Counted from the first letter of the stretch, positions 17,574-53,870 are shown. The stretch: 64,000 nt of DNA from an uncultured Acidobacteriota bacterium (GCA_963739795.1 CAVUBL010000010.1:410798-474797), one strand, 5' to 3'. The notes: generated by a model from the sequence alone, not told the origin. A program made the numbers and translations.

Positions 17574-17611
17574 GGCGATAGAAGTCTACCCAGGGATGCT
17601 AGCCTTGCGCT

Positions 17612-17688
17612 GGCGCGCTGCCCCAACTGGTAGAGGGGCCCGACTTAAAATCGGGCGGTTCCGGGTTCGAGTCCCGGGCGCGCTACCA
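17612..17688 (+). tRNA. tRNA-Leu(TAA), 77 nt, short variable loop, encoded CCA
   Basis: Acceptor GGCGCGC/GCGCGCT-A-CCA; anticodon arm CCCGA-CTTAAAA-TCGGG; T arm CCGGG-TTCGAGT-CCCGG. Confidence 0.9.
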
Positions 17689-17827
17689 CCCGACGCGGCC
17701 GCGCAGACTCCTCGATCCGCCTGGCCGGGACCGGCGGCCCCACGCCGGCGTCGACCTCCTCCGCAGCTTACACGTAGCCCCGCCCGGCCCGGGCGCCCGC
17801 TGAACTCCGTTCCGGCCGCGCGGGCCC

Positions 17828-18302: not shown

Positions 18303-18348
18303 GGGAAACCTCCTCGGCCATCGGATTCTGCTCTTTCGAGGCACACGG

Positions 18349-24282: not shown

Positions 24283-24360
24283 GCGCGGAGCAGTGTAGTG
24301 CACGCGACAAGCTCGTGCACCGGCCGGCTCCGCCATCCCGGACACCGGGCACCGGGCCCC

Positions 24361-24391
24361 GCGGCCGCCGGGGTCGGGCTCCGGCGGCCGC
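24361..24391. terminator. GC-rich hairpin downstream of the RND operon
   Basis: GCGGCCGCCGG-9nt-CCGGCGGCCGC; no U-tract. Confidence 0.3.
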
Positions 24392-24407
24392 TTGCCGGCA
24401 TGAGCTT

Positions 24408-27533: not shown

Positions 27534-28705
27534 TGATTCTCCGCGAACTTGAGGAAGAGTCCACCCTCGACGACGACGCGGTCGTCGGGCGAGAGCCCGG
27601 AGGTCACCTCGAAGAGATCGCCGATCCGCGAGCCGAGGTCGACCCGGCGGCGGAAGTAGTTACCGTCCTTGCCGGCGAGATAGACGAACGGCAGGTTCTC
27701 GTCATCGCGCAGCACGGCCGAGGTCGGCGCCAGAAGCCCCTGATGCCCGGTGCTCGAGTGGATCCGCACCTTGACGTAGAGGTCCTTCTTCAGGGCGCCT
27801 CCCGGGTTGTCGGCCAAGATGCGAACCGCCACGGCCCGGGTCTGGGGATCGACGACGGCGGCGATGTAGGAGACCTTGCCGGGGACCGGGTCGGGCGCGG
27901 TCTCGGTGAGGACCTCGGCCGGATCTCCCACCTTGACGTCGGCCAGGTCGCGGGTGAAGACGTTGGCCATCACCCACATCTTGGAGAGGTCGGCGACGGT
28001 GAAGCAGGTCGTTGCGCCGGCGCCGAGGAGCTCGCCCGGCGTGATCATCCGCTCGACCACCGTGCCGCGGATCGGAGACCGCAGCAGCGCATAGCTCCGG
28101 TCGATCGCCTTGCCGGCCACCAGGTCGTCGAGGGTCTTCTGATCGACCCCCAGCGAGCGCAACGCTTCGAGCGCGGCGTCGCGATCCGCCTCGGCGGAGG
28201 TGGCGTCGGTCTGGGCCTGCTCGAGCTCGCGGCGGGAGAGCCCACCGTCGGCGAACAGCTTGCTGTCCAGATCGGCGATGCGCCGGGCGTTGGCGGCGTC
28301 GGCGGCGCCCTTGCGGTAGGCGCTGATGTCGGCGGCGAAGTCGGGCGAGGCCACCTCGGCCAGAGGCTGGCCGCGCTTCACCTGGGCGCCGACGTCCACC
28401 AGCAGCCGGGCCACCGGTCCCGAGATCGGGGAGATGACCTGGGTCGACTGATCGGCGTCGAAGGCCACCGTGCCGGTGGTCTCCACCGTGCGCCGGTAGT
28501 CGGTGGGCTCGAGGGTCACCGTGTGGATGCGAGCCTGCTGGGCAGGCGTGATGGTGATGCCCTGGGGGGTCGGGTCGGCGGCACTGGCGACCGGCGCGGC
28601 GGCCGGGTCGGAGGCCGGATCGGAGGCGTCGTGGCAGGCTCCGAGGAGCGCCACGGCGGGCAGCAGGAAGAGCACGGGGAGGAACTTCGAAGGTTTCGTT
28701 CTCAT
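27530..28705 (-). CDS. RND membrane-fusion (periplasmic adaptor) protein
   Basis: Lipobox LLGAC; ISGPVARL..VKRGQPL and LRSPIRGTV lipoyl halves. Confidence 0.9.
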   Translation of the reverse strand: MRTKPSKFLPVLFLLPAVALLGACHDASDPASDPAAAPVASAADPTPQGITITPAQQARIHTVTLEPTDYRRTVETTGTVAFDADQSTQVISPISGPVARLLVDVGAQVKRGQPLAEVASPDFAADISAYRKGAADAANARRIADLDSKLFADGGLSRRELEQAQTDATSAEADRDAALEALRSLGVDQKTLDDLVAGKAIDRSYALLRSPIRGTVVERMITPGELLGAGATTCFTVADLSKMWVMANVFTRDLADVKVGDPAEVLTETAPDPVPGKVSYIAAVVDPQTRAVAVRILADNPGGALKKDLYVKVRIHSSTGHQGLLAPTSAVLRDDENLPFVYLAGKDGNYFRRRVDLGSRIGDLFEVTSGLSPDDRVVVEGGLFLKFAENQ

Positions 28706-28715
28706 CGTCGGAGTC

Positions 28716-30005
28716 TCAGGAGTTGGCGGCGGGCAGCCTGGTGCCGATGGCGCGTTCGAGATCGGCGCGCGAGTCGTTGGCCGCGCCCAGGGCGTCGGCG
28801 AGCTCGCTTTCCGCGGCGAGCAGCGTGCGCTTGGAGTCGAGAAGATCGAGGGCGGAGAGCCCCCCGAGGCTGTAGCTCTTGCTGGCGATGTCGTAGGCGC
28901 GTTGGGCCTCGGGGAGAAGCTGGTCTCGGAGATAGATCGCCTGGCGGCGGGCGGTGTCGGCGGCCTGGAAGGCGCTCCGTACCTCGAGGGCGACTTGCGC
29001 TTCGAGGTCGCGGGAGGAGGCCGAGAGCTCCTCCTCGTAGTGCTCGGCCTCGGCGACCTGCCCCTTTTCGTGCTGCCAGAAGAAGAGCGGGAAGCTGATG
29101 CCCGCCACCGTGCTGAAGGTCGAGGTGTCCCCTCGGTAGTTGTTGCGCTCCAGGGTGACGTCGAAGTCCGGCAGCCAGTAGGACCGGGCGAGCTTGGTGG
29201 AGGTGTGCGCCGCCTTGCGCTGCGCCGCCAGGCTCGCCAGGTCCGGACGGTTCGCCGCGGCGAGCTTGACCAGCGTGTCCAGGGGTGGCAGCGGGGGCGG
29301 CACGGACAAGGGGTCGCTGAGCGCCAGGGGCGAGGCGAGTGGCCGCCCGACCAACCGGTTGAGGGTCGAGCGCGAAGTCGCGAGCTGCCGCTCCGTGGCG
29401 ATCAGGGCGTTTTCCGCCTGGGCCACGTCCACCTTGGCCTTGATCACGTCGATCTCGGGCACCGTGCCGGCTTCGAAACGGGCCTGGGTCTTGGCGAGGA
29501 AGTCGTCGGCCAGGGCCTTGGCCTGCTCGAGGTCGCGCAGGTGCCGCCGGGCCACGAGGAGCGCGTCGTAGGCGGTGACGGTGTCGGCGGCGAGCTGCTG
29601 GCGCGCCTGGGTGTAGTCGAGCTCGGCCGACTTGTACAGGTCGGTCGCCGCCTTGCCGCCGAGGCGGATCTTGGTGGGAAAGGGGACGGCGAGGTCGAAG
29701 GCGTAGATGCGCGCCGGCGAGCTGCCGGGCGAGAGCAGGCCGGTCTCGTCGTCGTACTCGGCCGACAGGGCCGGATCGGGCAGGGCGCGGGCCTCGACGA
29801 TCCGGGCTCGCGCCTGCTCCACTTGCTGGCGGGCGGCGGCGAGGCCCGGGTTGTGCGCCCAGGCCTCGCGGACGGCCTGCTCGCGGCTGAGTCCGGGCGG
29901 CGTCGCTTTCGGCGGCGCGGCCGGCGGAGCCGCCGAAGCGCGGGCAGCCGGCAGACAGGCTATGGTGATCGCTACCGCCAACGAGGCGGCACGAAGAGGT
30001 TTCAT
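28716..30005 (-). CDS. TolC/CzcC-family outer-membrane efflux protein
   Basis: Signal peptide, OEP helical repeats, C-B-A operon position. Confidence 0.88.
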   Translation of the reverse strand: MKPLRAASLAVAITIACLPAARASAAPPAAPPKATPPGLSREQAVREAWAHNPGLAAARQQVEQARARIVEARALPDPALSAEYDDETGLLSPGSSPARIYAFDLAVPFPTKIRLGGKAATDLYKSAELDYTQARQQLAADTVTAYDALLVARRHLRDLEQAKALADDFLAKTQARFEAGTVPEIDVIKAKVDVAQAENALIATERQLATSRSTLNRLVGRPLASPLALSDPLSVPPPLPPLDTLVKLAAANRPDLASLAAQRKAAHTSTKLARSYWLPDFDVTLERNNYRGDTSTFSTVAGISFPLFFWQHEKGQVAEAEHYEEELSASSRDLEAQVALEVRSAFQAADTARRQAIYLRDQLLPEAQRAYDIASKSYSLGGLSALDLLDSKRTLLAAESELADALGAANDSRADLERAIGTRLPAANS

Positions 30006-32949: not shown

Positions 32950-33290
32950 CGGACCCTATCCCATTCGAGGGTCACGGACAACGCCCCGGCAGGGCGATGC
33001 GAAGGCGCGACGGTTCCAATCGCTCTCGGTCGAAGAGCGGATGGCGTATCTCACCGAGCTCACCGAGCTGGCCCTCCAGAACAACCCCCGCATCGCCGAG
33101 TCCAAGGATGCTCCAGCGGCTCCAGGGCGTGCTCGCGTCCTTACGCTCCCATGACGTCGAATACCTGGTGATCGGCGGAATCGCCTCCGTTCTCCACGGC
33201 GTGCCGCGGGCGACGTTCCATCTCGACATCCTCATCCGGCCGGACATCGAGAACGCTCGGCGACTCCTCCAGGTATTGCACCTCGAGGCG
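32950..33290 (+). pseudogene. Truncated copy of the small-protein/nucleotidyltransferase module
   Basis: ~280 bp near-identical to 46058-46338; NTase (ATG 33108) stops matching after ~57 aa; DLD changed to HLD. Confidence 0.75.
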
Positions 33291-34201: not shown

Positions 34202-36634
34202 ATGTCTCGATATGGAATAGACCGAATCTTCAACCGGCGGGCGCTTCGCGTCGCCCGTCTCGTCTTCTGGCTCTCGCTCGCCCTGCCCGCCGCGGCCCTG
34301 GCCGGCCAGGTGCTGGGCAAGGTCATCGGCCCCGACGGCTCGCCGCTCCCCGGCGTGACCGTCCGTCTCTCCAACCACGTCACCGGCTACGAGCAGCAGG
34401 TCACCACCGGCGCCGACGGCGCCTTCCTGCTCTACAACGTCCCCGACAACCCCTATCACCTGACCGCCGAGCTCTCGGGCTTCTCGCCGGTCCACGAGGA
34501 CGTCTCGGTACGCGGCGCGGTGCCGGTGGAGCGCATGCTCACCCTGGCGCCGAGCTTTTCCGAGAGCGTCTCGGTCGAAGGCGCGAAGGAGCCCGTGGCC
34601 CTCGAGACCGACAGCTCCACCAGCCACGTGGACATCGACCGCTCCCTCATCCGCCGCTTCCCGGCGGCCGCAGCCTCGCGCGCCTTCGAGTCGATCGTGC
34701 TCTCGGCTCCCGGCTTCTCCCAGGACGAGAACGGGCGCTACCACTTTCAGGGCGGTCACTCGCAGCAGCTCCTGGTGGTCGACGGCCAGCCCATCGGCGA
34801 CCAGGTGGGGATCACATTCTCCAACTCTCTCGACCCGGCCATCGTCCAGGACCTCGAGATCCAGACCGGCGGGATCTCGGCCGAGTACGGAGAGAAGGCC
34901 TACGCGGTGCTCAACCTCACGACGCGCTCGGCCCTGGGTCATGACGGCTTCCACGGCGACGCCGGGGTCGGCGGCGGCAGCTTCGGCACCCACCAGGGCT
35001 CTGCGAACCTCGGCTGGGGCGCTGCGCGCCGCGGGGTGTTCGCCAGCGTCGACGGCTCGTCCTCGGACCGCTTCCTCGATCCCGTGTCGTTCGGCAACCT
35101 CCACAACCACGGCGACACTACCCGCGCCTTCGTCCGCTACGACCTGCTCTCGGGGAGCGGCTCGGACTCTCTGAGGTTCACGGCCAACGCCGGCCGTACC
35201 CGCCGCGACGTCACCAACCTGCCGTCCCAGGAGGCGGCGGGTCAGGCCCAGCGGGTCCACTCGGAGGACTGGAACGGCAACCTCGGGTATCAGCACGTCG
35301 CCGGCGACTGGGTCGCCGAGGGCCTCCTCTATGCCCGCGACAACCGCCTGCGCCTCTTCGGCTCACCCGGCGACACGCCGGTGACCGCCGACCAGAACCG
35401 CTCCCTGGCCAACCTGGGCGGGTCGTTCTCGATCTCTCGGCAGATGGGGGTCCACGAGCTCGAGGCCGGTGTCCAGGCCAAGAGGTTTCCCATCGACGAG
35501 CGGTTCGACTTCGGGATCACCGATCCCGGCTTGAACGACCCGGCTTCGGAGGGGTACGACGCCAATCTCGCGCCCTACGACCTCACCCGCGGCGGGCAGC
35601 TCTTCACATTCTCGGGCTCGCGCACGGGCACCTACGGAGCCGCCTTCGTCGAGGACACGATGCGCCTCCGGGCCCTGACCGTGCACGCGGGCGTGCGCTA
35701 CGGGCGCAACCGGCTCTTCGAGACGGAGTCGGAGGTCCAGCCGCGCCTCGGCGTCGCCTACTCCATCGCGCCCACCCACACGGTCCTCCGCGCCTCCTAC
35801 GACCGGATGTTCGTCACCCCGGAGTACGAGAACATCCTGCTCTCCTCCTCGCCCGAGGCCGCGGCCTTGGTGCCGCCGGACATCCAGGCCTCGAACCGCC
35901 TGGGCTTCGGGCAGCTCTACAACGTGTCGGAGAAACAAGACGTGATCAACGTCGGTGTGCAGCAGGGGATCGGCTCCGCCCTCAGAGTCGACGCCTCCTT
36001 CTGGAAGCGGCGGGTCACGAACGCCGCCGACCAGTCGCAGTTCTTCAACACCGGCATCGTCTTCCCCCTCAACTTCAAGGGCGGCGACCTACACGGCTGG
36101 AACCTACGGCTGGACGGTGGTCCGGTCGCCGGAGTGCGCGGCTACCTGTCGCTGGGGCACGTCCGGGCCATCTACGACCCGCCGTTCGTCGGCGGGCTCT
36201 TCCTCGACGCCGAGGCCCTCGACAGCCTTAGCGGCGGCCCGTTCGTCATCGACCACGACCAGAACCTCCAGGAGCAGCTCGGCCTTTACTGGGACGTTCC
36301 CGGAACCGGGTTCTGGCTCGGCCTGACCCAGCGCTACGACTCCGGCCTGGTGACCGACGCCGGGGACCCGGCGGACGTCCTCGCCAGCCCGGACACGGCC
36401 TACGCCGAGCCCTACATCCGGTTCGCCGAGGACCCGCAGCGGATCCGGCCACGCACCGTCTGGAACGCCTCCGCCGGGACGCGCCTGGAGCGCTACCACC
36501 TCCCGTTGGAGCTCGAGGTGGACGTCCTGAACCTGACCAACGAGAAGGGCCTCTACAACTTCCAGTCGGTCTTCGGCGGCACCCACGTCATCCCGCCCCG
36601 GGCGATCTCAGCCCGCCTCCGGGCGACGTTCTAG
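34202..36634 (+). CDS. TonB-dependent receptor with N-terminal carboxypeptidase-regulatory-like domain
   Basis: Signal peptide, plug region (GGISAEYG), beta-barrel pattern, C-terminal Phe (RLRATF). Confidence 0.9.
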   Translation: MSRYGIDRIFNRRALRVARLVFWLSLALPAAALAGQVLGKVIGPDGSPLPGVTVRLSNHVTGYEQQVTTGADGAFLLYNVPDNPYHLTAELSGFSPVHEDVSVRGAVPVERMLTLAPSFSESVSVEGAKEPVALETDSSTSHVDIDRSLIRRFPAAAASRAFESIVLSAPGFSQDENGRYHFQGGHSQQLLVVDGQPIGDQVGITFSNSLDPAIVQDLEIQTGGISAEYGEKAYAVLNLTTRSALGHDGFHGDAGVGGGSFGTHQGSANLGWGAARRGVFASVDGSSSDRFLDPVSFGNLHNHGDTTRAFVRYDLLSGSGSDSLRFTANAGRTRRDVTNLPSQEAAGQAQRVHSEDWNGNLGYQHVAGDWVAEGLLYARDNRLRLFGSPGDTPVTADQNRSLANLGGSFSISRQMGVHELEAGVQAKRFPIDERFDFGITDPGLNDPASEGYDANLAPYDLTRGGQLFTFSGSRTGTYGAAFVEDTMRLRALTVHAGVRYGRNRLFETESEVQPRLGVAYSIAPTHTVLRASYDRMFVTPEYENILLSSSPEAAALVPPDIQASNRLGFGQLYNVSEKQDVINVGVQQGIGSALRVDASFWKRRVTNAADQSQFFNTGIVFPLNFKGGDLHGWNLRLDGGPVAGVRGYLSLGHVRAIYDPPFVGGLFLDAEALDSLSGGPFVIDHDQNLQEQLGLYWDVPGTGFWLGLTQRYDSGLVTDAGDPADVLASPDTAYAEPYIRFAEDPQRIRPRTVWNASAGTRLERYHLPLELEVDVLNLTNEKGLYNFQSVFGGTHVIPPRAISARLRATF

Positions 36635-37052: not shown

Positions 37053-37370
37053 TCAGGCCGCCGTGTGCCTCGGGATCTTCTCCACCTCGCTCTCGAGCTT
37101 CCGCTCGGCGTGCCAGAGGTCGTACTCCGTCTGCATGCGGAGCCAGAGGCCGGGACCGTTGCCGCAGAAGCGGCCCAGGCGGACGGCCATCTCGGGCGAG
37201 ACGGCGGAGCGCTCGGCGAGGACCGCGTGGAGCATCTGGCGCGAGACGCGGAGCTGCCGAGCGGCCTCGCTGACGCTCAGACCGAGGGCGGGGAGCACGT
37301 CCTCGCGGAGAATTGCTCCGGGGTGGGTCGGGGCCATTCGAGGTGGCTGTTCCGCGGGAATCTCGGGCAT
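37053..37370 (-). CDS. higA: HigA/VapI antitoxin
   Basis: THPGAILREDVL..LSVSEAARQL..SPEMAVRL..WLRMQ..YDLW. Confidence 0.9.
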   Translation of the reverse strand: MPEIPAEQPPRMAPTHPGAILREDVLPALGLSVSEAARQLRVSRQMLHAVLAERSAVSPEMAVRLGRFCGNGPGLWLRMQTEYDLWHAERKLESEVEKIPRHTAA

Positions 37371-37383
37371 CTCTCTCCTGCCT

Positions 37384-37659
37384 TCAGTGGTACTGCTCCA
37401 GGTCCACCCGGAGGGCATCGCCGTCGTCCCACTCGAACGTGATGCGCCACGGGCCGTTGACGGCGAGGGCGTAGCGTTCGGGCTTTCCGTGGAGGCGGTG
37501 GAGTCGCCAGCCGGGCAAGTCGAGATCCTTCGGGTCTTCTGCGGCCTGAAGCGCCGTCAGTCGCATCCGCACACGATCGACCAGGTCGGGACGGATCCCC
37601 TTCGGGTCGTTCGCGTTCCAGAGCCTCGCCAGCCCCTTGTGCCGGAAGCTCCGGATCAT
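37384..37659 (-). CDS. higB: HigB (RelE superfamily) toxin
   Basis: MIRSFRHKGL..DLDLPGWRLH.L.G..VNGPWRITF signature. Confidence 0.9.
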   Translation of the reverse strand: MIRSFRHKGLARLWNANDPKGIRPDLVDRVRMRLTALQAAEDPKDLDLPGWRLHRLHGKPERYALAVNGPWRITFEWDDGDALRVDLEQYH

Positions 37660-37696: not shown

Positions 37697-37721
37697 GCGA
37701 GGCTTTACAGGTTGAGCGGCG

Positions 37722-37742
37722 GGCCCGCGCACAGCGCGGGCC
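37722..37742. other. Hairpin/cruciform downstream of VR2
   Basis: GGCCCGCGC-aca-GCGCGGGCC, 12 nt past the stop codon. Confidence 0.75.
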
Positions 37743-37754
37743 AGAGGGCCAAGA

Positions 37755-39939
37755 TCACAGTCCTCCCGACGACGAACAACACACCCGAAACCCGATGACG
37801 TCGTTGCGGCTCTCGGGATGGACGACGTCGCGGTAGGCCGCGCGCAGGTACCTCGGGTAGTCGTGGAACGAGCCGCCCCGCAAAACCCGCGACGCGCCCG
37901 AGGACGGTCCGCTCGGGTCCTTCTCGGCTTCCGGGGGGTAGTCCCCGTACCAATCACCGCACCATTCCCAGACGTTGCCGGCGAGATCTTGGACTCCCTC
38001 CGGCGTCGCCCCCTCGGGGTAGGCGCCCACCGGCGTGGTGTCCCCAACACTCATGCCAAAGTTGGCCAGCTGCTCGCTGGGCTCGGCGTCTCCCCACGGG
38101 TACTTGCGCCCGTCGGGCCGCCGGGCGGCGTACTCCCACTCCGCCTCGGTGGGCAGCCGCACAAGACGTTCGTCTCCGCCCTCGGAGATCCGGCTTGAGA
38201 GCCACTCGCAAAACGCCATCGCATCCATCCAGGAGACGTTGACCACCGGGTGCTCGTCCTTGCCCTCGGGGATCTGCCCGTCCACCCAATGCTCCGGAGG
38301 CTCCTTGCGCGTCGCCTTTACGAAGACGGCGTACTCGGCGTTGGTCACCGGGTGGCGCGAGAGCCGGAACGGGCTCACCGTGACACGCCGGACGGGGGAT
38401 TCGTTTTTCTGGGCCTCTGAATCGTAGCCCGGGCCGTCCGGCTTCGTCCTGCTGCGCCCCCATCCAGAAGCTGCCTCCGGGGATCTCGAGCCAGGCCCCG
38501 GAGCCCAGGTCGAAGAGGTCTCGCTTGCCGCTGACGGGCCGCGCCTTGGGCGCTTCGACTGCCGGCGGCGTGGCGAAGTAGACCAGCAGGTGGCGCTGGC
38601 GGTCGCTGAGCTCTCGCAGCACCTTGAGATGCCGCTCCGGAAGGCCGCTCGCCCGGATGCGGGCCCACTCCGGAGGAGCTTCCTTCTCCCCGGCCGTCCC
38701 CTCCGCCGAGTCCTCGGTCTCCAGCCGTTCCATGTCCAGGAGAAACTTCCTCAGGTTCTGGGGCAGCGCTCGCACCTCTCGCCAGCGGTCGGCGGGCAGA
38801 ATCTCGGAAAGGAGGTGCCAAGCGACGACAGCGGGCTCGGGTAGCTCTTCCTCCCCCTCGCCCAGCTTGCCCGTATTGCGGAGCACCGCGAGAGTCATCG
38901 AGAGGTCGTTCAGGAAACGCTTCACGTGGCGGGGGTGCCGGGTCTCCAGGGCTCGAGCCAGGACCCGGACGTCTTCGCTCCCGCGCTCGCCGCCCGATCC
39001 CAGGACCCTCGCCAGGTCGGAACCCTCGAGGAGGCCGGTCACGTACCCTTCCGCCCCACTGGGGCTCACCTCCGGAAGGTCGAAGGCGACCTGGACGACC
39101 TTCTCGAGGAACTGATCCGCCTGCCCCTGAACGGTCTCCGGCAGGACTTCGACCAGGCGCTCCCAGTCGATCCCCAGGAAGAAGCAGACGCCGGGGAGGT
39201 CGAGGAAGAGGTTGATGGCCTCGATCACCTCGACGACTCGCTCCCGCCGACACCGGTCCAGGTCGTCGAGGAAGACGGCCAGGACCTCTCGGCGCTGGGT
39301 TTCCGGGCTCCAGAGCTGCGCTTCGGTGAGGCCGCCGGTATCGCGGAAAGCGGGCTGGAGCTCGAAGAGGAGCCGGGAGACCTCGTTGAAGAGGTCCCGG
39401 AAGGTGTCGTGGAAGGCCCGCTTCTCGTGGGCCGGGGCGTAGCGGCTTTCCGGGCCGTCGCCGAGGATGAGATCCCGGAGCGGCGCCGGCGCCGCCAGGC
39501 CGAAGAGGGCCTTCAAGGTCGCGCTCTTGTACGAGCCGACCAGGTGCTTGAGCTGGTCGAGCATGCCGCCCTTGCGGAGCTCGTCGATGGCGGCGCCCAG
39601 CAGGCCGGCCAAGATCGTGTCGTCGTCCGGGTACTTCCAGGCGTTGAACCAGAGGGTCCGGACCTTGCGGACGCCGGCAGGAGGGTTCGACTCGGGCTTC
39701 CCCGGGTTCTCGAGTAGCCACTGCGCCCGGCGGAGCAGCGTCGTCTTGCCGCGCCCCCAGCCGCCCCGCACCACCACCGTGAAGGGCGTCGAGTTGTCCG
39801 GGTTCCAGGCCAGCTCCGCCAGGGTTCGGGCGAAGCCCTCGAAACCGAGATCCAGCTCTTGCTCCCGAAGGGGATGGTCCGGGAAGACGCGCGCGAGGCG
39901 GGACGCCTCCGACGCCTCGGACTTCTTGCCCTTGCTCAT
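37755..39939 (-). CDS. DGR target 2: KAP-family P-loop NTPase fused to FGE-sulfatase/CLec domain (one indel near 38450)
   Basis: GGWGRGKTT, FNAWKY, FLDDLDRC, FLEKVVQVAFDLP; [31 protein letters not shown]; ends in VR2. Confidence 0.88.
37758..37895 (-). repeat. DGR variable repeat VR2
   Basis: 138 nt; 12 substitutions versus TR in the variable core, all at TR adenines. Confidence 0.93.
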
Positions 39940-40961
39940 GGGCTCCATCCTCTCAAACTTCGCCACGTCCCGGCCAGCTCGACGTGGCCGCGCCAGGCGG
40001 CGAGGCTCCGCTCGAGCTCCTCCGGCAGCTCGCCACCCTGCCGGCGGCGCCGCAACCGGCGCCGATACCGTCGAACGGTCTCACCGCGGACCCGGATCCG
40101 ATCCGGCCAGACGACATAGCCCAGGAACGGAACCCCTTCGTCCGATCGGCGGATCGACGCTCTTGCGGGGGTGGGCCACGAGGCGAAGCTCCGCGAGCTT
40201 GCCTTCGACTCGTTCCATCCACTGCCGTCAGGACTGCTTCTCGTCGTGAAGGAGGATGAAGTCGTCGACGAAGCGCAGGTACGCCGGCGCGCGCAAGCGT
40301 CCTTACCCAGTGGTCGAAGCCGTCCAGGTACAGGTTGGCCCAGATCTGCGCGGTCAGATTGCCGATGGGCAGGCCCTGCCGTCGGTCCCAAGGGGTGAGA
40401 CAGTCGTCGCCTGGGAAGTAGCACGAAACGGCTCGCGGGCTCGTGCCCATGATCCACGATTCGATCGAGCAGGGAGAGGAGCAGGGCATCCTTGAAGATT
40501 CCCGGAACTTCGCCTTCAGGATCTCATGGTCGATGGCCGGGAAGTACTTCCGAACGTCCACCTTGAGGGCGTAGCGGAAACGGCCGGCGAAACGCTGGTA
40601 GCGGAGAACGGCCCGGTGGCTTCCCTTGCCCCGCCGGTTGGCCCAACAGTCGAAGATCAGGCGGCGGTCGATCTCCGGTTCGATCACGTTGCAGATCGCG
40701 TGATGGACCACCCGGTCGGGATAGGGAGCGGCCGAGATCCAGCGCCTCTTGGGATCGTGAACCAGGAAGTGGCGATGAGGTGAGGGGCTCCAGCTCTCGG
40801 CCGCGAGCTCTCGGCTCAGGCCGATGGAGGTGGTCCTCCAGGCGGCGGTTGAAGCAGAGGACGTCCGGGCGGTAGCGCTTCCCGCACTGGGCTCGGCGGG
40901 CAGCGAGACGGAGGTTTTCGAAAGAGCACACCTCGGCGAAGAGCCCTCCGACCCGGCGCAC
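39936..40961 (-). CDS. DGR reverse transcriptase (several single-base indels as sequenced)
   Basis: Assembled from frames: [67 protein letters not shown]. Confidence 0.88.
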
Positions 40962-40971
40962 GGCGCGACGC

Positions 40972-41335
40972 CTACTCTTCTCGACGGGGCCCGGTGGCCT
41001 GGAGCCACCCGCCGATCATCCGCCCCAGCTCCTCGTTCTGGCCGCTGATGTATTCGAGCTGGCGTGGGGACAGGGCCTCGACCTCGGCCGCCAGCCGCAG
41101 CAGGATGCGGAGCTGGTCCAGAAGGCGGTTCGCCCGGTGGAGGGGGCGCTCCTTGCTGCGGGCATGGGACGCCTCGACGAGGGCCATGCAGAGGTCGAGG
41201 GCCGTGGTCTGGAGCTCGGTCGCCCAGGGTCAACTTGTAGCCGCCGGGGAACCGCTCGACCCGCGGCAGCAGCCACCGGTTGACGTCGTACGCCTTCTGG
41301 ACGATGGGAAGTAGCGCGTCGTCTGAGGGCGACAT
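40972..41335 (-). CDS. avd: DGR accessory variability determinant (four-helix bundle; one indel near 41220)
   Basis: KAYD..WL...[27 protein letters not shown]...ELGRMIGGW. Confidence 0.85.
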
Positions 41336-41360
41336 GGAGAAGGGAAGACCCAGGCGGCGC

Positions 41361-41401
41361 CCCCGCCGCGCGTTCGCCGACGAGCTACCAGCGCGGCGGG
41401 G
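41361..41401. other. Stem-loop in the TR-avd spacer (Sp-like DGR RNA element)
   Basis: CCCCGCCGCGC-19nt-GCGCGGCGGGG perfect 11 bp stem. Confidence 0.45.
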
Positions 41402-41532
41402 AGCCTTCTTCTTCGCCCGCGACCCGCGGGGCGCGACCCGGTCGGCCGGCGGGACTGGAGAGCGCGCGCTCCAACCGGGCCACCGTGGTGGCGCGACTGG
41501 ACTCCGGCGTCGCACCTGGAAGGCCAGGCCCC

Positions 41533-41671
41533 CAGTGCTCCCGACGACGAACAACAACACCCGAAACCCGATGTTGTCGTTGCGGTTCTCGGGATGGTTG
41601 TTGTTGCGGTAGGCCGCGCGCAGGTTCCTCGGGTTGTTGTTGAACGAGCCGCCCCGCAAAACCCGCGACGC
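41533..41671 (-). repeat. DGR template repeat TR
   Basis: 139 nt, 10 in-frame AAC codons ([32 protein letters not shown]); non-coding location. Confidence 0.95.
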
Positions 41672-41734
41672 TGTGCCGGCTGACCGCGGAGACGGTATCA
41701 CGGCACCGCTCGGCGCTTGCAGGATTCGCGGCGC

Positions 41735-41753
41735 GCCCGCGCACGGCGCGGGC
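41735..41753. other. Hairpin/cruciform downstream of VR1
   Basis: GCCCGCGC-acg-GCGCGGGC, 13 nt past the stop codon. Confidence 0.75.
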
Positions 41754-41766
41754 CAAAGGGACGAGA

Positions 41767-44700
41767 TCACAGTCCTCCCGACGACGAACAACAAACCCGA
41801 AACCCGAAGTTGTCGAAGCGGCCCTCGGGATGGACGCCGTCGCGGTAGGCCGCGCGCAGGTACCTCGGGAGGCAGATGAACGAGCCGCCCCGCAAAACCC
41901 GCGACGCGCCCGAGGGCGGTCCGGTCGGGTCCTCCTCGTCTTCCGGGGGGTAGTTCCCGAACCAGTCGGCGCACCACTCCCAGACGTTCCCGGCCAGGTC
42001 GTGGAGCCCCTCCGGCGTGGCTCCCAGGGGATAGATCCCGACCGGTGTGGGGCGCCCGACGTTCCAGGCGAAGTTCGCATGGAGGGAATCCGGCTCCTCT
42101 TCTCCCCAGGGGTAGCGTCGGCCTTCCAGGCCTCGAGCAGCCAGCTCCCACTCGGCCTCGGTCGGCAGGCGCCCGCCCGCCCAGCGGCAGAAGGCGTCCG
42201 CCTCGTACCAGGAGACGTAGGTCACCGGGCGGTTCGGGTGCCGGAGCTGGTCGTTCCAGGAGTCCGGGCTCGTGTATCCCTCTCGCTCCCGCCAGGTCCA
42301 CCCTTCCGGGTCCCAGCTCCTGGGGTCGAGGTACCCCTCGTCGCCCGCCTCGACGAACCTCCGGTACTCCTGGACCGTCACCGGGTAGCGCCCGAGGACG
42401 AAGGGGCTCACGGTGACGCGGCGGACCGGGGATTCGTCGCCGAAGGCGTCCGGGTCGTAGCCAGGGCCAGGGGCCTCGGAGTCCGCCGTCTGGGCGCCCC
42501 TCCAGAAGGTGCCGCCGGGGATCGCCACCCGGTTCTCCTCCGGCTTCGCCAGACGCGGGTCCCCGGCCTGGCCGAGGGCCTCGCCCACGTCCACGCGAAC
42601 GGCTTCCTCGACGACCTCTTCGCCTTCCGCAGGAGGCTTGAAGATCGTGATGGCGTTCTCGAGGGCGGTCGAGTATGCGGTGCCCGCGGCGGGGTCACCG
42701 CCGTAGGGTTTGAGGTCCACGAGAATCCGGCCTACCAGGCCCACGGCCCGGGCCTCGCTCACCCGGTCGGTGCCGGTCGCGAGGATCTTCTCGAGGAGTC
42801 GCCGGGTGGCCCGCCGCCCGTCCAGGTGGCACAGGCACCCTGCCAGCAGCAGGACCACCTCGCTCCAGCGGTCGTCGTAGAGCCGGCCGTCCTTGGAGAG
42901 GACGTCCCAGTATTGGCCGTCGGTCTTGAGCTCGCGGGCCGCCAGATACTCCTGGAAGGAGAGATGCCAGAACTCGACCTCCCCCTCGGTGTGGCTCACC
43001 ACGATGCCACTCTCGAGCGCTTCGGCTTCGAGGAACGCCCGGCCCTCGGCCTCTCCGGTCTCGAGAACGGGGGCCACGGCTCGGCTCGCCTCGGGCAGGC
43101 CCAGGGAACGCTGGACGCCCTCTGGATCGGTGAACATGTCGAGGGCCAGGGCCTGGAGGGCCTCCTGCCGCTGGCTCGTCGTGAAGGCGAAGTGGTCCTT
43201 GTGGGAGTCCAGGAGATAGGAGATCGCCACCTCGTAGAGCTCGTTGCGGCATTCCGGGAGCTTCTTCTGGTTCCAGTGGACGACCGCGAGCATGGTGAGC
43301 ATCAGGGGGCTCTCGGTCATGGGGCCCACGTCCTCGTGGGAGCGGATGGCCTCGAGGAGCTCGGCCTCGTACTCCGCCGCCTCCCGGCTGGCGTCGGGGC
43401 CGGCGCCCGCACCCTCCGACCCCGGGTCCCGGACCTGGAAGAGGGCGCGGCTCCAGCCGCGGATGAAGGTCGCCACCTGGTCATCGTCGAAGGGCGCCAA
43501 GGGATAGGCGGGCAGGCCGCCGAGGTGCGCGAGCCGCTGATAGGCCCGGGTGCGGCAGGTGATGAGGTGGCGGTTGGGGCGGTCGGTGGAGCCGGTGGCC
43601 ACCAGCTCGTCGACGATGGCGGCGACCCGGGTGCGGAGCGCCCCAGGCACCTCGTCGAGGCCGTCCAAGAGGAGGAAGCAGCCGCCCGAGGTGACACGGC
43701 GGCGCAGGTAGCCCTCCGACAGGCCGAGGTTTCGGCCCTGGAGGTCGAAGTCCAGGTACCGAAGCAGGTGGTCGGGGGCGTCTTCGGGGCAGGAATCGTT
43801 CGGCTGGTCGGCCAGGAACCGGGCGAAGCTGGAAAGGTAGACGAGGACCGGGAAGGGGATCTCCTCGGCGGTGGTGGCGTCGAGGCCCAGCTCGCGGGTC
43901 GCCAGTCTCGGGTCCCTGGTGAGGAGCGACCGGGCCAGGACCTGCGCCGCGAAGCGGAGGAAGGTGGTCTTGCCCGACCCCGGGTCGCCGATGAGGACGG
44001 CGTGCGGCGAGCGGCTGAGGGCCTCGGGAAGCTCGAGGTGCCGCTCCCGGCGGAGATCCTCCTCGATGGGCTCGTGCTGCCGCCCTTCGGGTCCGACGCC
44101 GGCCACTCGAAGGCGGGTGTAGACGCGATCGAGCGGAAGGCGCTCGGCGACCTGAGCGCCCATACCCCGGATCTTGACGTAGGAGTTGCGGCTCTCGACG
44201 GCCTGGAGGTAGCGGGTGGGGTCGGGACCTGCCGGTCGCCGCGTGCCCTCCGACCCCCAGGCTCACCACTTCCTGGGCCACCTTCGGGCCGGTGGCCTGC
44301 GATCTGTCGGCGAGCTCCTCCACCAGCTCCAGCAGCCGCTTCGCCACGTCCTCCCAGGCCTTGTCCTCGTTCCCCCACTCGGGGTCCGTCACGGCGAGGC
44401 CGTTCGTGGGAAGGGCCTGGAGCTTGCCGAACGGAGCGGTCTGCCAGTTCCCCGTCGGCCGGACGATCACCGGCACCACCCGGGCCTCGCCTCTTCGCCT
44501 CCCGCTCCAGCGCCCGCTTCATCTCCCGGCCCCAGATGAACTCCGAGGCGATGAAGTCGTCGCTCACCAGGAAGAGGATGAGGTTCGCCCGCTCCAGCTC
44601 TTCCGCGATCCCCTCCTCCCAGCGGTCGCCGGGGAGGAGCTTGCGGTCGGTCCAGGTGTCGATCAGGCCCTGGCGCTCCAGGAGCTTGAGCGCCTTCTCG

Positions 44701-44774
44701 AGGCGGATCCGGTGCCGGTCGTCGGCGTGCGAGTAGCTGAAGAAGACCCGGACGGGTGGACGTTCGTCGCTCAA
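41767..44774 (-). CDS. DGR target 1: TIR-NACHT(STAND)-FGE-sulfatase/CLec protein (indels near 44500 and 44225)
   Basis: [35 protein letters not shown] (TIR); [28 protein letters not shown] (NACHT); FGE motifs; ends in VR1. Confidence 0.88.
41770..41907 (-). repeat. DGR variable repeat VR1
   Basis: 138 nt; 16 substitutions versus TR in the variable core, all at TR adenines. Confidence 0.93.
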
Positions 44775-45084
44775 GAGATTCCTCCGATGGAGTGGAAGCT
44801 ACCACCCTGAGTGGTGGGAACCACCTGGCCGTTTCGCATCAAGCCGGCGGGCGCCGGAGCTCGGCCGGGAGATTTCCACAGGGAGCTTCGGAGCGGCGCC
44901 GTGGCAGAACCGGCACTCCGGCGGGCATGGCCGGGGTGAGCCCAGGGATGTCGGTCATGGTCCCGACTCCAGGCACGAAACGAAGAGCGATCGTCACGCC
45001 GAGGCGCCGATCGAGGGCGGCGGGGGCGTTGCCCAAAGGACCCGGCGCGGGAGGGCAGCCGTGCAGTCGACGCACCTCCGCTCC

Positions 45085-45720
45085 ACTCAAGTGGACGGTG
45101 AGGGCGAAGTACACGGCCAGCGGTACGCCGTTGAGTCGCGCGGGCCGAACCACCGACGGCGGATCGCTTGAGGGCACTGTAACTAGCGTCGCCTGTCGAG
45201 GGCCTCCGGAACGCCGCGGTTGGATACCTGCCCGTGCATGGCGATCATCGTCTCTACGTCGACGCGTCCGCGGACCGCGAAGAACTGAGTGCCGAATGGA
45301 AACTTCTCAGGTAGTCGGGCGTACCCGTGGGTCGAGTGAGCTTGCCGGGTGGCGAGGCGTGAACCGACACCGCCTCGCCGTCCGCGAGCAGCGTGGGCCG
45401 GGCCTCACGGAGCGGGTTCGCGGCGAGCAGGCTCCCCGGATCGCCGAACTGCCGAGGACCTCGCTCGCCAACGAGGAGTCAAGTTGAGCGCCACGTGCCA
45501 GTCCCAGATCGTCGCTTCCGGGCGACGAGACCGGCCTCGCTAGAGGACGGTGAATCAAGAAGATGCCGAGAACCTGACTAGCCAACCGCCCTGGGCCGAG
45601 GCGCTCGACCATCTCGTCGAAGAGCGGCTCAGATTTCATCTGTCCGCGTGTAATCGCGGGCCAGGAGGGCTTGCTCGCCTTCCTGATCGAGGTCCTCCAG
45701 CGCTTGCGGCGGTCCCGGGC
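45085..45720 (-). pseudogene. Degraded TonB C-terminal-domain gene
   Basis: Fragments GRVDVETMI..GQV and RPARLNGVPLAVYFALTVHL in different frames. Confidence 0.35.
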
Positions 45721-45964
45721 GCGGAGGGCTCCCGGGAAGATGGTGGGTAGGAGCGCGAACGTTGTCCACACGCGATCCACGAGACCCTCCCAAGCCGACG
45801 CTAGGCAGGAGACAAGAGTGTCCTGTCCCGGGCGGGAGAGATGGCGGTCTCGGGCCGCCCTGGCTCGCTTGGGGATTCGGTGGACCGTCGCCTCCGAGCT
45901 GTCGCGCCAGGATCCCCCCGAGGCTCGAGTTGAGCCGCCCGCCGCCTGGTATCATCGGCAGAGA

Positions 45965-46213
45965 ATGAAGCCGCCGCCACCAGCGCTCTCTGGTTCGGGC
46001 GTGTCCCCGACTCCGGTTCGCGGTGTCTCTCACTCGCGGGACGACGAGAGCCTCGAAGCGAAGGCGCGATGGTTCCAATCGCTCTCCGTCGAAGAGCGGA
46101 TGGCGTATCTCGTCGAGCTCACTGAGCTGGCCCTCCAGAACAACCCCCGCATCGCCGAGTCCAAGGATGCTCCAGCGGCTTCAGGGCGTGTTCGCGTCCT
46201 TACGCTCCCATGA
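45965..46213 (+). CDS. Small protein paired with the nucleotidyltransferase (putative TA partner)
   Basis: KARWFQSLSVEERMAYL; overlaps the downstream NTase; duplicated at 33.0 kb. Confidence 0.55.
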   Translation: MKPPPPALSGSGVSPTPVRGVSHSRDDESLEAKARWFQSLSVEERMAYLVELTELALQNNPRIAESKDAPAASGRVRVLTLP

Positions 46214-46622
46214 CGTCGAATACCTGGTGATCGGCGGAATCGCCGCCGTTCTCCACGGGGTGCCGCGGGCGACGTTCGATCTCGACATCCTCATCCGGCC
46301 GGACCTCGAGAACGCCCGGCGACTCCTCCAGGCATTGCTCGCGGCAGGACTGGCCACCGCGGACCTGACGACGCCCGAGGAAGTTCTGGCCAACGAGATC
46401 ACCATCTTTCAGGACCGCGTCCGCATCGACGTCCAGACGTCGACGCCGGGCCTCGACTTCGAGACGGCCTGGCGGCGGCGGGAGACCATGGACTACCAAG
46501 GGGAGCCATTCTTTGTGGTGTCCCGCAAGGACCTGGTGGCCTCGAGGCGAGCCGCCGGGCAGGACGTGGATCTTCAGGACGCGGAGATGCTCGAAAGCGC
46601 CGGCGAGGACGAGGACGCCTGA
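46167..46622 (+). CDS. Minimal nucleotidyltransferase (DUF6036/MNT-like)
   Basis: YLVIGGIAAVLHGVPRATFDLDILI, RIDV and AAGQDVDLQD motifs. Confidence 0.8.
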   Translation: MLQRLQGVFASLRSHDVEYLVIGGIAAVLHGVPRATFDLDILIRPDLENARRLLQALLAAGLATADLTTPEEVLANEITIFQDRVRIDVQTSTPGLDFETAWRRRETMDYQGEPFFVVSRKDLVASRRAAGQDVDLQDAEMLESAGEDEDA

Positions 46623-49051: not shown

Positions 49052-49559
49052 CGTTCTCCTTCGCCTTTAGAGCTGGAACGGGCCTCTCGATCGACTCAAG
49101 CTACGACGCGCGGGACCTCGTCTGGATCGACACGAGAGGAGGTCCGGGAAGGGGTGACTGGCGAGGGCGCTGTGGAGGGAGGGGCCACCGCCCACGCGGC
49201 TGGGTGCTTGAGGCGAGCCAGTTGCCAGGGGTTTGTGAAGGAGGGCAGAGCTGTATGGGAGGGGAGGGTGGGTGAGCAGCTGCGCTGCTAGGAGGGGGGG
49301 TTTGGAGAGGTAGCGAGGGCAGTGCTGAGGAGGGTGGTAGGCGCTGCAGGGGTTTGGGATGGGATGGGGGTAGGCGCTGGGGATGGAGCAGCTTCAGTAT
49401 AGCGGGAGCGCTCGCGCTAGGTGCGGTGACTTCACCGGTAAGCAAGTGGATGTGCACGCTGCAGCGTGCCATCGAGGAGCTGGATCGCGGGGGAAGGTGG
49501 GGGCGGTGGGGTGGGGATCCCCGCGGGTTTAGCGCAGTTGCGGGAAGCGGGCTTCAGCT

Positions 49560-50069
49560 TCACGGGTTCGGCACGAAGCGATGCTGGAATCCTGCGTCCT
49601 CAAGCGGCGCCGCAGATCCCGAGCTCCTGGATGGTCGGAAACGCGAAGAGAAAGGGCGCATGCGAGACGTAGTAGAAGGCTGGGAAACGCTCTGGTGCAA
49701 GGCCCGCAGCTTGGCTCCTCTCTGGTCAGCGAGGTCGAGCTCATGGCTGCGGTAATGGCTCTGGTCAAAAGTGATGATGCAGCGAGGCTCTCGTCGCAGC
49801 TGATCCACTATCGAAGCGACGCGATGTGCGTGCGCCTTCGGATTGATTAGCCTCGCCTGGCAAACGGATTCCGGTATCTGGGTGTTCAGGAGCGAATAGA
49901 TGGACGGTCGGTTGTGCGGCAAGATGGCAATTCCGGTGAGGCGGGTGAACTCCCCTGAAGATCCTCGGGCGGGAACCGGGGCTCTGCGTAGATGGGTGCC
50001 AGTCCGCGAGGAGCTGCTGCCAGAGCCCCTTGACCACATCGTAGGAGTGGCCAGGTAGTCGCGTTTCAC
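49560..50069 (-). CDS. Hypothetical protein, frameshifted, lower GC
   Basis: Coherent segments MKRDYL.HSYDVVK, CIITFDQSHYR and FYYVSHAPFLF across frames. Confidence 0.4.
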   Translation of the reverse strand: MKRDYLATPTMWSRGSGSSSSRTGTHLRRAPVPARGSSGEFTRLTGIAILPHNRPSIYSLLNTQIPESVCQARLINPKAHAHRVASIVDQLRREPRCIITFDQSHYRSHELDLADQRGAKLRALHQSVSQPSTTSRMRPFSSRFRPSRSSGSAAPLEDAGFQHRFVPNP

Positions 50070-50255
50070 TGTCGAAGCGTCTCTGAGGCCAACGGCCTAT
50101 CGTTAGCGGCGGCGCCACTTGCCACTGCCCCTGCCATCGCGCTCCCTGCGCCCCACGACGAGGTGTACACTGACTCGGGAACCTTTCGCGAGGACGACAG
50201 GTGCAAGTTGGGTGGCGACCACTGAGGAGATGCATTGAGGCCGTCTCCAGAGGCC

Positions 50256-51210
50256 TTAGTGGAACTGCCTCAGAATCTTCCTGACTGTTCGGTCCAGGTC
50301 TTGATCTGTCTGTCGTAGCTGCTCAATCTTGTCCACAGCGTACATCACCGTAGAATGGTGTTTGTTGCCGAATGCTTTCCGATTTCTGGGTATGAGAGGT
50401 TTGTCAACTTCTTGCAGCAATACATCGCTACCTGGCGAGGAAATGCGACCTGTTGGGAATTTGTCCGGCTCAGAACCTCGTCGACTTTGAGGCAGTAGAG
50501 ACGTGCTACATGCCTGATGACCGCGCGCGCGTCGACGCGGCGTTTACGCGATCGTCTGACGGATGCCGCTCGGTTCTCCGCCAGCTTCGCCAGGTAGGGA
50601 ACGGTGTAGATGCTCTCCAAGAGGGCACGACAGAGGTCCGAGAGGAGGTCCGCCTCGCCCGCCGAAAGCTCGCCAGGTCCGCGTGAGCCCCAATGTTCCG
50701 CATTCTTCTAAACTGGGAGGCAACGCGGACGAGCTTTGGCGGGATCTCCCCTTTTTCCTCGAGGTTCTTAAGTTTCTCAAACAGGTTGTCGCCCCGAGCG
50801 TCGCGATCCGCACAAACTCTCTCGATCACCCTCCCAAGCAGAACAGCGTAGCCGTTGAAGTCGATGGGCTTCACGCGCTCCGCGGCTTCCAATGCGGAGG
50901 CTACCTCCTCTGGCAAGCCTTTCGGGTGGAGTTCTCCAGGTGGGTAAACGGTGTCCGTCAGAATTAGTTCAGGGCTCCCGCCCTCCTCAAGAATGCCCTG
51001 CACTTCATGTTCCGTTCCCTGAGAGAAGAGAAGGCTAATACCTCCGTACGGTGGGCAACGGACCAGCTCCCAGGTCCTCCATGCTGTGTCGCCTCCGGAG
51101 GCATCTTCTTCCTCGCTGTACTCCCGAAGTACGTAGAGAAGTCCGGAATTCCCGCAATGTCGGCAGAGATGGGGGGCTGCAGTCAGCCGTCCGTCGGGGT
51201 CTCCTGGCAT
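50256..51210 (-). CDS. DUF4145 (HEPN-like) domain fused to DnaA domain IV (two single-base indels)
   Basis: CRHC; LGRVIERVC..LFEKL..L..RNIGAH; then FPRQVAMYCCKKLTNLSYPEIGK(A)FGNKHHSTVMYAVDKI. Confidence 0.75.
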
Positions 51211-52864: not shown

Positions 52865-53245
52865 TGCGAGGGGAGGAGTACCTGCTGTTCGTGCCCCCCG
52901 GGCCACAGGCTTCGCCCGTGGCCCCTCCCCCACCCGCAGGGACTTGCAGCTTGGCTCCCGGGCGCCAGGCGCCCGGTCTCCAAACTGCCTGGGGCTGTCA
53001 GTCGCCGGAGTGGCTGGGCGGCCTGTGCCGGAGGGCCGCGCACCTGGCGTGTCCCCTTCGAGGTGAACGGCGTTCACCTGAACGAAGGCGTCGCGAGAGG
53101 GTGCAGATCTCTACACTGAGCGCATGGAACACGCGCCTTCGCTCAGCCAGTGCCGGCGACGCCGGGCGTGTCTCAGGGACTCCTCCCTGCGCATTTCCCG
53201 GATCGGAACCGGCCTTCCCCAAACCTCACTTCTAAAGGAGCCGAC

Positions 53246-53473
53246 ATGACCCCATCTACCGAAGCCGAATCCCCCGTCACCCTCGTCAACCAGGTCAAGG
53301 CCGCAGAGATCCTCACTGTCGATCCTCGAACCTTGGCGGGCTGGCGCTACCGCGGAGGTGGGCCGCCGTTCGTCCGCATCGGCAACCGGGTGCGCTACAA
53401 GGTCCGCGATCTCTATGCGTGGATCGAGGAGCGGACGTTCCAGTCCACCGCCGAGGCCGATGAGCTGGCGTAG
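53246..53473 (+). CDS. HTH_17/AlpA-like excisionase-type DNA-binding protein
   Basis: KAAEILTVDPRTLAGWRYRGGGPPFVRIGNRVRY. Confidence 0.8.
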   Translation: MTPSTEAESPVTLVNQVKAAEILTVDPRTLAGWRYRGGGPPFVRIGNRVRYKVRDLYAWIEERTFQSTAEADELA

Positions 53474-53577: not shown

Positions 53578-53652
53578 TGGAGGCGACGGGCGGATTCGAA
53601 CCGCCGAATGAGGGTTTTGCAGACCCTTGCCTTACCACTTGGCTACGTCGCC
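53578..53652 (-). tRNA. tRNA-Cys(GCA), encoded CCA
   Basis: GGCGACG..AGGGT-CTGCAAA-ACCCT..GGTTCGAATCC..CGTCGCCTCCA. Confidence 0.96.
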
Positions 53653-53795: not shown

Positions 53796-53870
53796 GCGGG
53801 AATAGCTCAGTGGTAGAGCACAACCTTGCCAAGGTTGGGGTCGCGGGTTCGAATCCCGTTTCCCGCTCCA
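53796..53870 (+). tRNA. tRNA-Gly(GCC), encoded CCA
   Basis: GCGGGAA..CAACC-TTGCCAA-GGTTG..GGTTCGAATCCC..TTCCCGCTCCA. Confidence 0.97.

Follow-up and report, generated by a model that had tools for sequence, protein, structure and literature searches.

Background

The closest described counterparts of the locus considered here are the diversity-generating retroelements (DGRs) of clade 5D, each of which has two targets that combine a central NTPase domain (NACHT, nSTAND and, in some cases, KAP) with a single diversified C-type-lectin (CLec) domain at the C-terminus (Dore et al. 2024, PNAS, PMC10907252). The same study described N-terminal TIR effectors on some of the targets as well as loci that are degenerate or affected by insertion sequences (IS), and proposed that the targets act as antigen sensors, with an emphasis on multicellular taxa and Thiohalocapsa PB-PSB1 DGR 3 as an example; the string "Acidobacteri" is absent from its main text. 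Here we analyze a stretch of 64,000 nucleotides from an uncultured Acidobacteriota bacterium (GCA_963739795.1 CAVUBL010000010.1:410798-474797; hereafter the window, in which positions are counted from the first letter), whose minus strand contains a compact, 7.1 kb DGR cassette at 37702-44805. This cassette fits the description of the clade 5D-type elements point by point, having two NTPase-CLec targets and a TIR effector, but differs from them in that its host is probably Thermoanaerobaculia-like, outside the multicellular taxa emphasized previously, and in that its targets belong to two different NTPase families, whose fixed order recurs across relatives. We consider it likely that the locus is a complete chromosomal DGR of the known NTPase-CLec conflict-system type, situated in a variable island of a Thermoanaerobaculia-like acidobacterium. 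Its architecture is not new, the class having already been described in 2024, and it opens no new category of DGR; mildly new are the Thermoanaerobaculia-like host, the conserved pairing of a NACHT with a KAP target and the clean evidence for homing that orthologous loci provide. Its host also belongs to a phylum, and probably has a lifestyle, other than those emphasized so far.

The DGR of the Bordetella phage BPP-1 is phage-borne, has its template repeat (TR) between avd, the gene for the accessory variability determinant (Avd), and the reverse transcriptase (RT) gene, and diversifies a Mtd-type CLec protein. The window element shares with it an RT with full-length homology to bRT, a bAvd-family Avd, adenine-only differences between the TR and the variable repeats (VRs), a CLec-fold protein whose C-terminus contains the VR, a GC hairpin 3' of the VR and a TR-side version (IMH*) of the initiation of mutagenic homing (IMH) segment that differs from that of the VR. 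In contrast to the BPP-1 DGR, it is chromosomal, serves two targets, has its TR upstream of avd, uses the FGE-sulfatase subtype of the CLec fold, and shows a hairpin loop of 3 nt and an IMH/IMH* difference at a single position. With TvpA of Treponema denticola (2Y3C) both targets have in common a C-terminal domain of the FGE-sulfatase fold family and a VR at the extreme C-terminus; however, TvpA is a lipoprotein with no NTPase, whereas in the window the fold is fused to signaling NTPases of a cytoplasmic type. With the antiviral STAND/NACHT proteins (Avs, bNACHT) the second target shares the succession of effector, NTPase and sensor as well as a ThsB-like TIR domain, but its sensor is a hypervariable lectin fold in place of TPR or other repeats. 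We do not class this target as an antiviral STAND/bNACHT member, and regard it as resembling them in layout only, because its NACHT-FGE protein lacks a PADLOC match and the TIR fragment alone yields one. The similarity of the first target to the PifA and Qat KAP NTPases is also partial.

Results and discussion

A single template repeat and two variable repeats with adenine-restricted differences

Repeat finding over the window, followed by alignment of the copies, recovered a repeat of ~115 nt that is present three times (n=3) on the minus strand, at 37781-37895 (VR1), 41557-41671 (TR) and 41793-41907 (VR2). The 30-nt 5' end of this repeat has three exact occurrences in the 64-kb window against 0 expected, and as these are its only sites a third VR elsewhere in the window was rejected. 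The adenine-rich middle copy is the TR (41533..41671, with the mutagenic core at 41558-41671), which contains 26 adenines in its 114-nt core and 10 AAC codons. The outer copies constitute the last ~38 codons of target gene 1 (VR1) and target gene 2 (VR2), with the homology to the TR extending further to ~37758 in the former and to ~41770, across the IMH-like segment, in the latter. When the 114-nt core is compared, VR1 differs from the TR at 12 positions, all 12 of which are TR adenines (P=1.8e-9), and VR2 at 17 positions, 16 of which are TR adenines and the remaining one a G>T change at the 3' edge. Read in the target frame, each of the 26 TR adenines falls at codon position 1 or 2 and changes at these adenines cannot give rise to stop codons; the TR thereby specifies 16 variable codons, corresponding to at most ~1.8e15 theoretical protein variants.

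The homology between TR and VRs persists for ~35 nt beyond the last adenine, and in both targets the end of the VR lies 24-26 nt from the stop codon. The 3' IMH-like segment reads GGGAGGACTG in both VRs and GGGAGCACTG in the TR (the IMH*-like version), from which it differs at a single G/C position. This distinction, G in the VR versus C in the TR within GGGAG[G/C]ACTG, is kept both in the window and in the orthologous locus L002 described below. DNA folding predicts a GC-rich hairpin 3' of each VR, at 37722..37742 for VR1 (9-bp stem, 3-nt loop) and at 41735..41753 for VR2 (8-bp stem, 3-nt loop), both on the minus strand; unlike the two VRs, the TR has no such hairpin on its 3' side by the same procedure. 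A scan with Rfam detected only three tRNAs in the window, and the cassette gave no match to a known structured RNA.

The two targets are ~75% identical across their whole FGE domains, and part of the repeat signal is hence paralogy. Nevertheless, an explanation of the three repeats as ordinary paralogous gene ends or chance repeats devoid of retroelement activity is effectively refuted by the restriction of the mismatches to adenines, and we regard its probability as vanishingly small: 28 of the 29 mismatches to the non-coding third copy are on adenines (P ~1e-9 and lower), this copy directly adjoins the genes for Avd and a bRT-like RT, and the TR and VRs co-vary between orthologous loci. The element is a genuine DGR in which one TR serves two targets built on different NTPase scaffolds (NACHT/STAND and KAP).

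The reverse transcriptase, Avd and the two NTPase-CLec targets

The genes are arranged along the minus strand in the order target 2 (with VR2), TR, avd, RT and target 1 (with VR1). Several reading frames are broken in the sequence as given, a point to which we return below, and the RT and Avd translations were stitched across the breaks before domain searches against Pfam. The stitched RT (39936..40961) contains the RVT_1 domain with an RFVDD motif, the YxDD box being FVDD. Against the PDB it matches the Bordetella bRT (8ub7) with E=6e-40 over residues 6-333, whereas the top-scoring group II intron RT reaches 1.7e-14, and these match scores support its grouping with the DGR RTs and not with the group II intron class, an affinity that an initial annotation of the locus had named as incompatible with a DGR. 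Protein searches returned 3169 homologs of this RT, the nearest of which are intact RTs of 341 aa with 79-85% identity, and those of Moduliflexus, Moorena and Coleofasciculaceae show 46-49% identity, which is the one tentative indication of a place in clade 5D. The stitched Avd (40972..41335) is recognized by the Pfam bAvd profile (PF22296, 3.3e-14) and shows a weak match to Bbp7 (PDB 4DWL, E=0.05).

Target gene 2 (41767..44774) encodes a TIR domain, a NACHT-type STAND NTPase domain and a CLec fold of the FGE (formylglycine-generating enzyme) type, identified respectively by the Pfam profiles TIR_2 (7e-12), NACHT (2e-7) and FGE-sulfatase (1e-57); PADLOC places the TIR domain as ThsB-like (1.9e-28). 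The part of this gene at 41767-44163, coding for the NACHT and FGE domains (798 aa), is an unbroken open reading frame (ORF). Target gene 1 (37755..39966) combines a KAP-family P-loop NTPase domain (KAP_NTPase, 3.9e-25) with a second FGE-type CLec fold (FGE-sulfatase, 6e-50), the latter matching formylglycine-generating enzymes and the DGR variable protein TvpA (PDB 2Y3C, 6.6e-20). PADLOC yields partial matches of the KAP domain to PifA, QatA and PDC-S20, which span only ~75-260 residues, and no effector domain was recognized by Pfam on this target. These findings bear out the initial annotation in its account of the cassette, namely that RT, Avd, an AAC-rich TR and two different P-loop NTPase genes, ending in near-identical VRs with matching hairpins, all lie on the minus strand, that a single cassette acts on two unrelated scaffolds (STAND and KAP), and that the diversification is adenine-specific.

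The stop codon of the RT gene overlaps an ATG of target 1 (ATGA, 39936-39939), and the two genes are similarly closely juxtaposed in the related locus L027, an arrangement which suggests translational coupling of RT and target 1.

Orthologous loci and evidence for past homing

The same cassette is found with 81.6% nucleotide identity in an 11.1 kb contig (L002; ENA ERZ25039483 contig_48805), where the genes for the TIR-NACHT-FGE protein (986 aa), Avd (120 aa) and the KAP-FGE protein (727 aa) are intact and the differences between TR and VRs are again confined to adenines (18/18 and 15/15). The TRs of the window and L002 differ at 5 non-adenine positions, and at these the two VRs of each genome carry the bases of their own TR. 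When orthologous VRs are compared between the two loci, 20/26 and 13/26 of the adenine sites differ, as against 5/88 and 6/88 of the other sites. Since the TR and both VRs changed in concert within each genome, the comparison shows that transfer from TR to VR, i.e. homing, took place in both lineages after their split. The orthologous loci hence provide direct sequence evidence for TR-to-VR transfer subsequent to a lineage split.

Even as the RT identity drops from 85% to ~46%, across metagenome-assembled genomes (MAGs) of Acidobacteriota and Desulfobacterota type, the genes retain the order TIR-NACHT-CLec / Avd / RT / KAP-CLec. In particular, a Holophagae MAG (L004) has the identical succession of TIR-NACHT-FGE, Avd, RT and KAP-FGE with an RT that is 64% identical, three further loci (L027, L029 and L030) have a KAP gene after the RT, and in a Desulfurivibrionaceae MAG (L012) NACHT and KAP genes flank an RT of 46% identity. 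One relative (L032) has two NACHT targets.

In L002 an IS (6684-8609 of that contig) interrupts the RT gene close to the 3' end; it encodes an intact transposase (DDE_Tnp_1, 547 aa), and its terminal inverted repeats are CCCATCTTC/GAAGATGGG. The insertion leaves Avd and the two targets intact. A further contig from ENA (L003), with a Flye-style name, in which the N-terminus of target 2 is intact, is 95-100% identical to the window in the island flank and then only ~80% identical from the start of the DGR target gene onwards (window 43922-44805 versus L003 8100-9040). It seems that the cassette allele was exchanged or that it diverged far faster than its surroundings.

Broken reading frames in the cassette: assembly artifact or decay

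The initial annotation had remarked that the ORF track is fragmented almost beyond recognition, which is correct, but it did not weigh the consequence. Three-frame translation and alignment to the intact relatives L001 (78% nucleotide identity), L002 (82%) and L027 (82%) locate at least 10 frame-breaking indels over the RT, Avd and both targets, with at least five frameshifts and one TGA in the RT alone. Target 2 has an insertion of 1 nt at ~44490 and one of 37 nt relative to L002 at ~44240-44310, beside a G5 run; avd has an additional A at 41216, which is seen against both L002 and L001; the RT gene is affected at ~40822 (+1), 40501 (-1), 40445 (+1), ~40281-40304 (-2) and 40155 (+1), its in-frame TGA at ~40232 being accounted for by a -1 and a +1 change that lie within 7 nt; and target 1 has an insertion of 1 nt at ~38446. 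All these positions are on the minus strand. Programmed frameshifting in the RT was considered and rejected, as the five shifts go in both directions and have no common motif.

Elsewhere in the window a frame plot of G+C content at third codon positions shows long uninterrupted coding runs, and in a core-genome control the segment 58187-53908 aligned to a short-read contig (L069) with 485 mismatches and 8 gaps, all genes being intact. The island in which the cassette is embedded presents a different picture when compared with L003, which aligns to 52868-43922 of the window and in which low-divergence stretches of the island are only 0-0.6% divergent. In the 1 kb at 50000-50999 there are 3 substitutions, but 7 single G residues (in the minus-strand sense) are missing from the window, and at 49070-49600 and 44900-45920 there are dozens of small deletions, many of a single G. 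As a result several genes intact in L003 are scrambled in the window, including those for a DUF4145-DnaA_C protein (318 aa) and a TonB_C protein (249 aa) and two hypothetical genes. The scrambling of 49070-50700 by such small deletions also accounts for a spike in GC skew at 49-50 kb. Because these indel-to-substitution ratios are unlike those of natural divergence, we conclude that the consensus of the island part of the contig is locally of poor quality.

We hence favor the interpretation that the frame breaks in the RT, Avd and both targets are probably consensus errors of a long-read metagenome assembly and not biological decay, because selection on the RT appears intact and because single-base deletions relative to L003 occur in the same island. 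The principal competing explanation is that the element is a relic, in which the frameshifts are real and very recent, the RT and Avd are dead and the VRs are frozen records of past mutagenic homing, with the NACHT-FGE ORF (798 aa, without the TIR domain) and the KAP fragment being functional at best in part. We think this improbable, though by no means negligible. Against it, the stitched RT is collinear with the intact 341-aa RTs, and among 72 columns with a conservation of at least 95% across 110 relatives it deviates at 3, one of which is an indel-derived stop, leaving just 2 real deviations (for the relatives themselves the mean is 1.0 and the highest value 5). Measured against L001 or L002, the RT has a dN/dS of 0.15, lower than any other gene of the cassette. 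Of the RT changes that three-way codon alignments assign to the window alone, 32 are synonymous and 15 nonsynonymous, with no nonsynonymous excess over the intact L027 (30:14) or the intact L001 (43:24), and the same picture emerges when L002 is used instead. Since the synonymous to nonsynonymous split equals that of intact relatives, no relaxed selection is detectable on the RT despite an indel load of ~7 per kb. Further, any excess of substitutions is no larger than the number of indels, unlike in neutral decay, and the TR and VRs have no non-adenine substitutions at 88 core positions, although the TR contains one inserted nucleotide, an extra T at ~41554 found only in the window and lacking in its own VRs and in the TR of L002. 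Finally, single-base errors are demonstrable in the same island against a nearly identical contig.

Several observations nevertheless weigh against an assembly artifact and for a relic. As given, the sequence encodes no translatable RT, Avd or full-length target, and the indels, at least 10 in number, are concentrated in the RT and Avd (~6 per kb, versus ~0.6 per kb in the targets), an excess that is also what an earlier loss of the RT would produce. The cassette indels are mostly +1, involve mixed bases and lie outside long homopolymers, and thus lack the G-deletion signature of the plainly error-ridden segment at 49-50.7 kb; owing to this difference a single mode of error fails to explain them all. 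In addition, the RT motif at 40390-40400 reads IGNLTAQ, with an alanine, unique to the window, in place of the serine of IGxxxSQ that is present in 110/110 relatives; the substitution could be genuine, at a residue close to the region that determines fidelity, or one more error of the consensus. The IS insertion in L002 shows that the RT can be lost naturally in the same DGR lineage, and degenerate or pseudogenized DGR loci have been reported by Dore et al. (PMC10907252). A protein search as well as searches of GTDB genomes and JGI metagenomes also failed to recover an intact RT that is nearly identical, the closest having 85% aa identity. On balance, the assembly-error interpretation accommodates the signature of selection on the RT, and we retain it as the probable one. 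A practical lesson from this locus is that frame breaks in such elements need to be checked against the reads before a gene is called either a pseudogene or functional. If intact in the organism, the locus would be a clean, compact example of a DGR that hypermutates NLR-like (NOD-like receptor-like) sensors.

Proposed mechanism and biological role

What the locus itself demonstrates is the list of parts, an adenine-specific flow of sequence from TR to VR over evolutionary time and hairpins specific to the VRs. The steps of copying and homing are supplied by the Bordetella paradigm and the bRT-Avd structures. By analogy with the Bordetella DGR, an RNA containing the TR would be reverse-transcribed by an RT-Avd complex that misincorporates opposite template adenines, and the cDNA would then replace the 3' end of either target gene. 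Homing would be guided by the conserved IMH-like segment together with the GC hairpin 3' of each VR, and the TR would itself be spared on account of its IMH* variant, with C for G, and its lack of a hairpin. The predicted outcome is that 16 codons of an FGE-type lectin fold are re-randomized at the C-termini of two sensor-like NTPases. From the logic of the domains and the proposals of Dore et al., the tip of the lectin fold would bind a ligand, upon which the NTPase would switch or oligomerize, and in the case of target 2 the TIR domain would execute the output. Target 2 might accordingly be compared to the NLRs in its layout of effector, switch and sensor, and we consider it likely that the system senses ligands or antigens and couples this to a switch of the NTPase, the output of target 2 being that of its TIR domain.

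Whether the sensed ligands are of phage origin is a separate matter. The DGR might well be in working order and its NTPase-CLec proteins still not be anti-phage sensors, but instead function in signaling, in surface or kin recognition or in regulatory tuning. Such a non-defensive role is, in our estimation, a less favored but serious possibility. It accords with the absence of any PADLOC family at E<=1e-3 for the 798-aa NACHT-FGE protein, a result that weighs against an immune function, with the partial nature of the KAP matches and with the lack of a recognizable effector on the KAP target. Moreover, the neighboring genes mainly code for toxin-antitoxin (TA) systems and housekeeping-type proteins, with no dedicated defense system adjoining the cassette, and those who proposed the defense role themselves call it untested (Dore et al., PMC10907252). 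Conversely, the tripartite TIR-NACHT-sensor layout with its ThsB-like TIR mirrors that of antiviral STAND proteins, the KAP domain is similar to those of PifA and QatA, and the cassette lies within a strain-variable island together with TA modules and an ImmA/IrrE protease, all of which speak against such a non-defensive role. If intact, the locus would be a reasonable candidate for asking whether a DGR-diversified TIR-NACHT or KAP sensor confers defense.

A more speculative proposal, which we advance as rather doubtful, is that the two targets are an obligate pair diversified together, one TR feeding both lectin tips, in which the effector-less KAP sensor and the TIR-armed NACHT sensor would cooperate in the manner of paired NLRs, in hosts not known to be multicellular. 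The retention of the gene order despite falling RT identity would accord with this. Were this true, the idea of a hypermutated antigen sensor would extend beyond multicellular bacteria.

Genomic island, neighboring genes and host

The cassette is located in an island between a gene for a TonB-type receptor (34202-36634) and tRNA-Cys (53578-53652), in a window with an overall G+C content of 69.5%. It is flanked by the toxin-antitoxin pair HigB/HigA (37053-37659), as well as by a PIN toxin with an upstream partner and an ImmA/IrrE-type M78 peptidase with a helix-turn-helix (HTH) domain; the other genes of the island include a TonB_C remnant, a DUF6036 nucleotidyltransferase, a DUF4145-DnaA_C protein and RadC. 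An ORF coding for a Xis/AlpA-like HTH protein (53150-53473) is found beside tRNA-Cys and tRNA-Gly (53796-53870). This HTH ORF and its tRNA setting suggest a tRNA-associated integrative island, though no integrase was found for the island and no att repeat of tRNA-Cys of at least 13 nt was detected. In related genomes the corresponding place has a different content of TA systems and IS elements. Three relatives with the neighboring TonB-type receptor (L066-L068) share just 1.56 kb with the window at 87% identity, and have other island content and no DGR; because their island content differs, the locus is strain-variable. These three were rejected as controls.

The host is probably a Thermoanaerobaculia-like acidobacterium, since the nearest named relatives of its CysS are Thermoanaerobaculia proteins (at most 81% identical) and the cassette also occurs in a Holophagae MAG; this agrees with the initial annotation, which had proposed a probable acidobacterium from the sequence. 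The latter had also placed the cassette in a defense island next to restriction-modification (R-M) and TA modules. This claim is true only in a loose sense: HigBA, the PIN toxin and the ImmA/IrrE-type peptidase do flank the cassette, but the only R-M genes in the window belong to a Type I system 13 kb from the cassette, beyond a Czc efflux operon, OmpA and the TonB-type receptor. This system (17586-24774, minus strand) adjoins tRNA-Leu (17612-17688) and consists of an HsdM-like N6_Mtase (18349-19953) and an HsdR-like protein with ResIII and EcoEI_R_C domains (21439-24774), with two unannotated ORFs between and beside them. It is followed by the CzcCBA-type heavy-metal efflux operon (24408-30005).

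A direct repeat of 285 bp on the plus strand, with 95% identity between its copies at 32995-33279 and 46054-46338, reflects a duplication, 13 kb away, of the 5' portion of the gene for the DUF6036 nucleotidyltransferase. Between the two copies lie the TonB-type receptor, HigBA and the entire DGR cassette.

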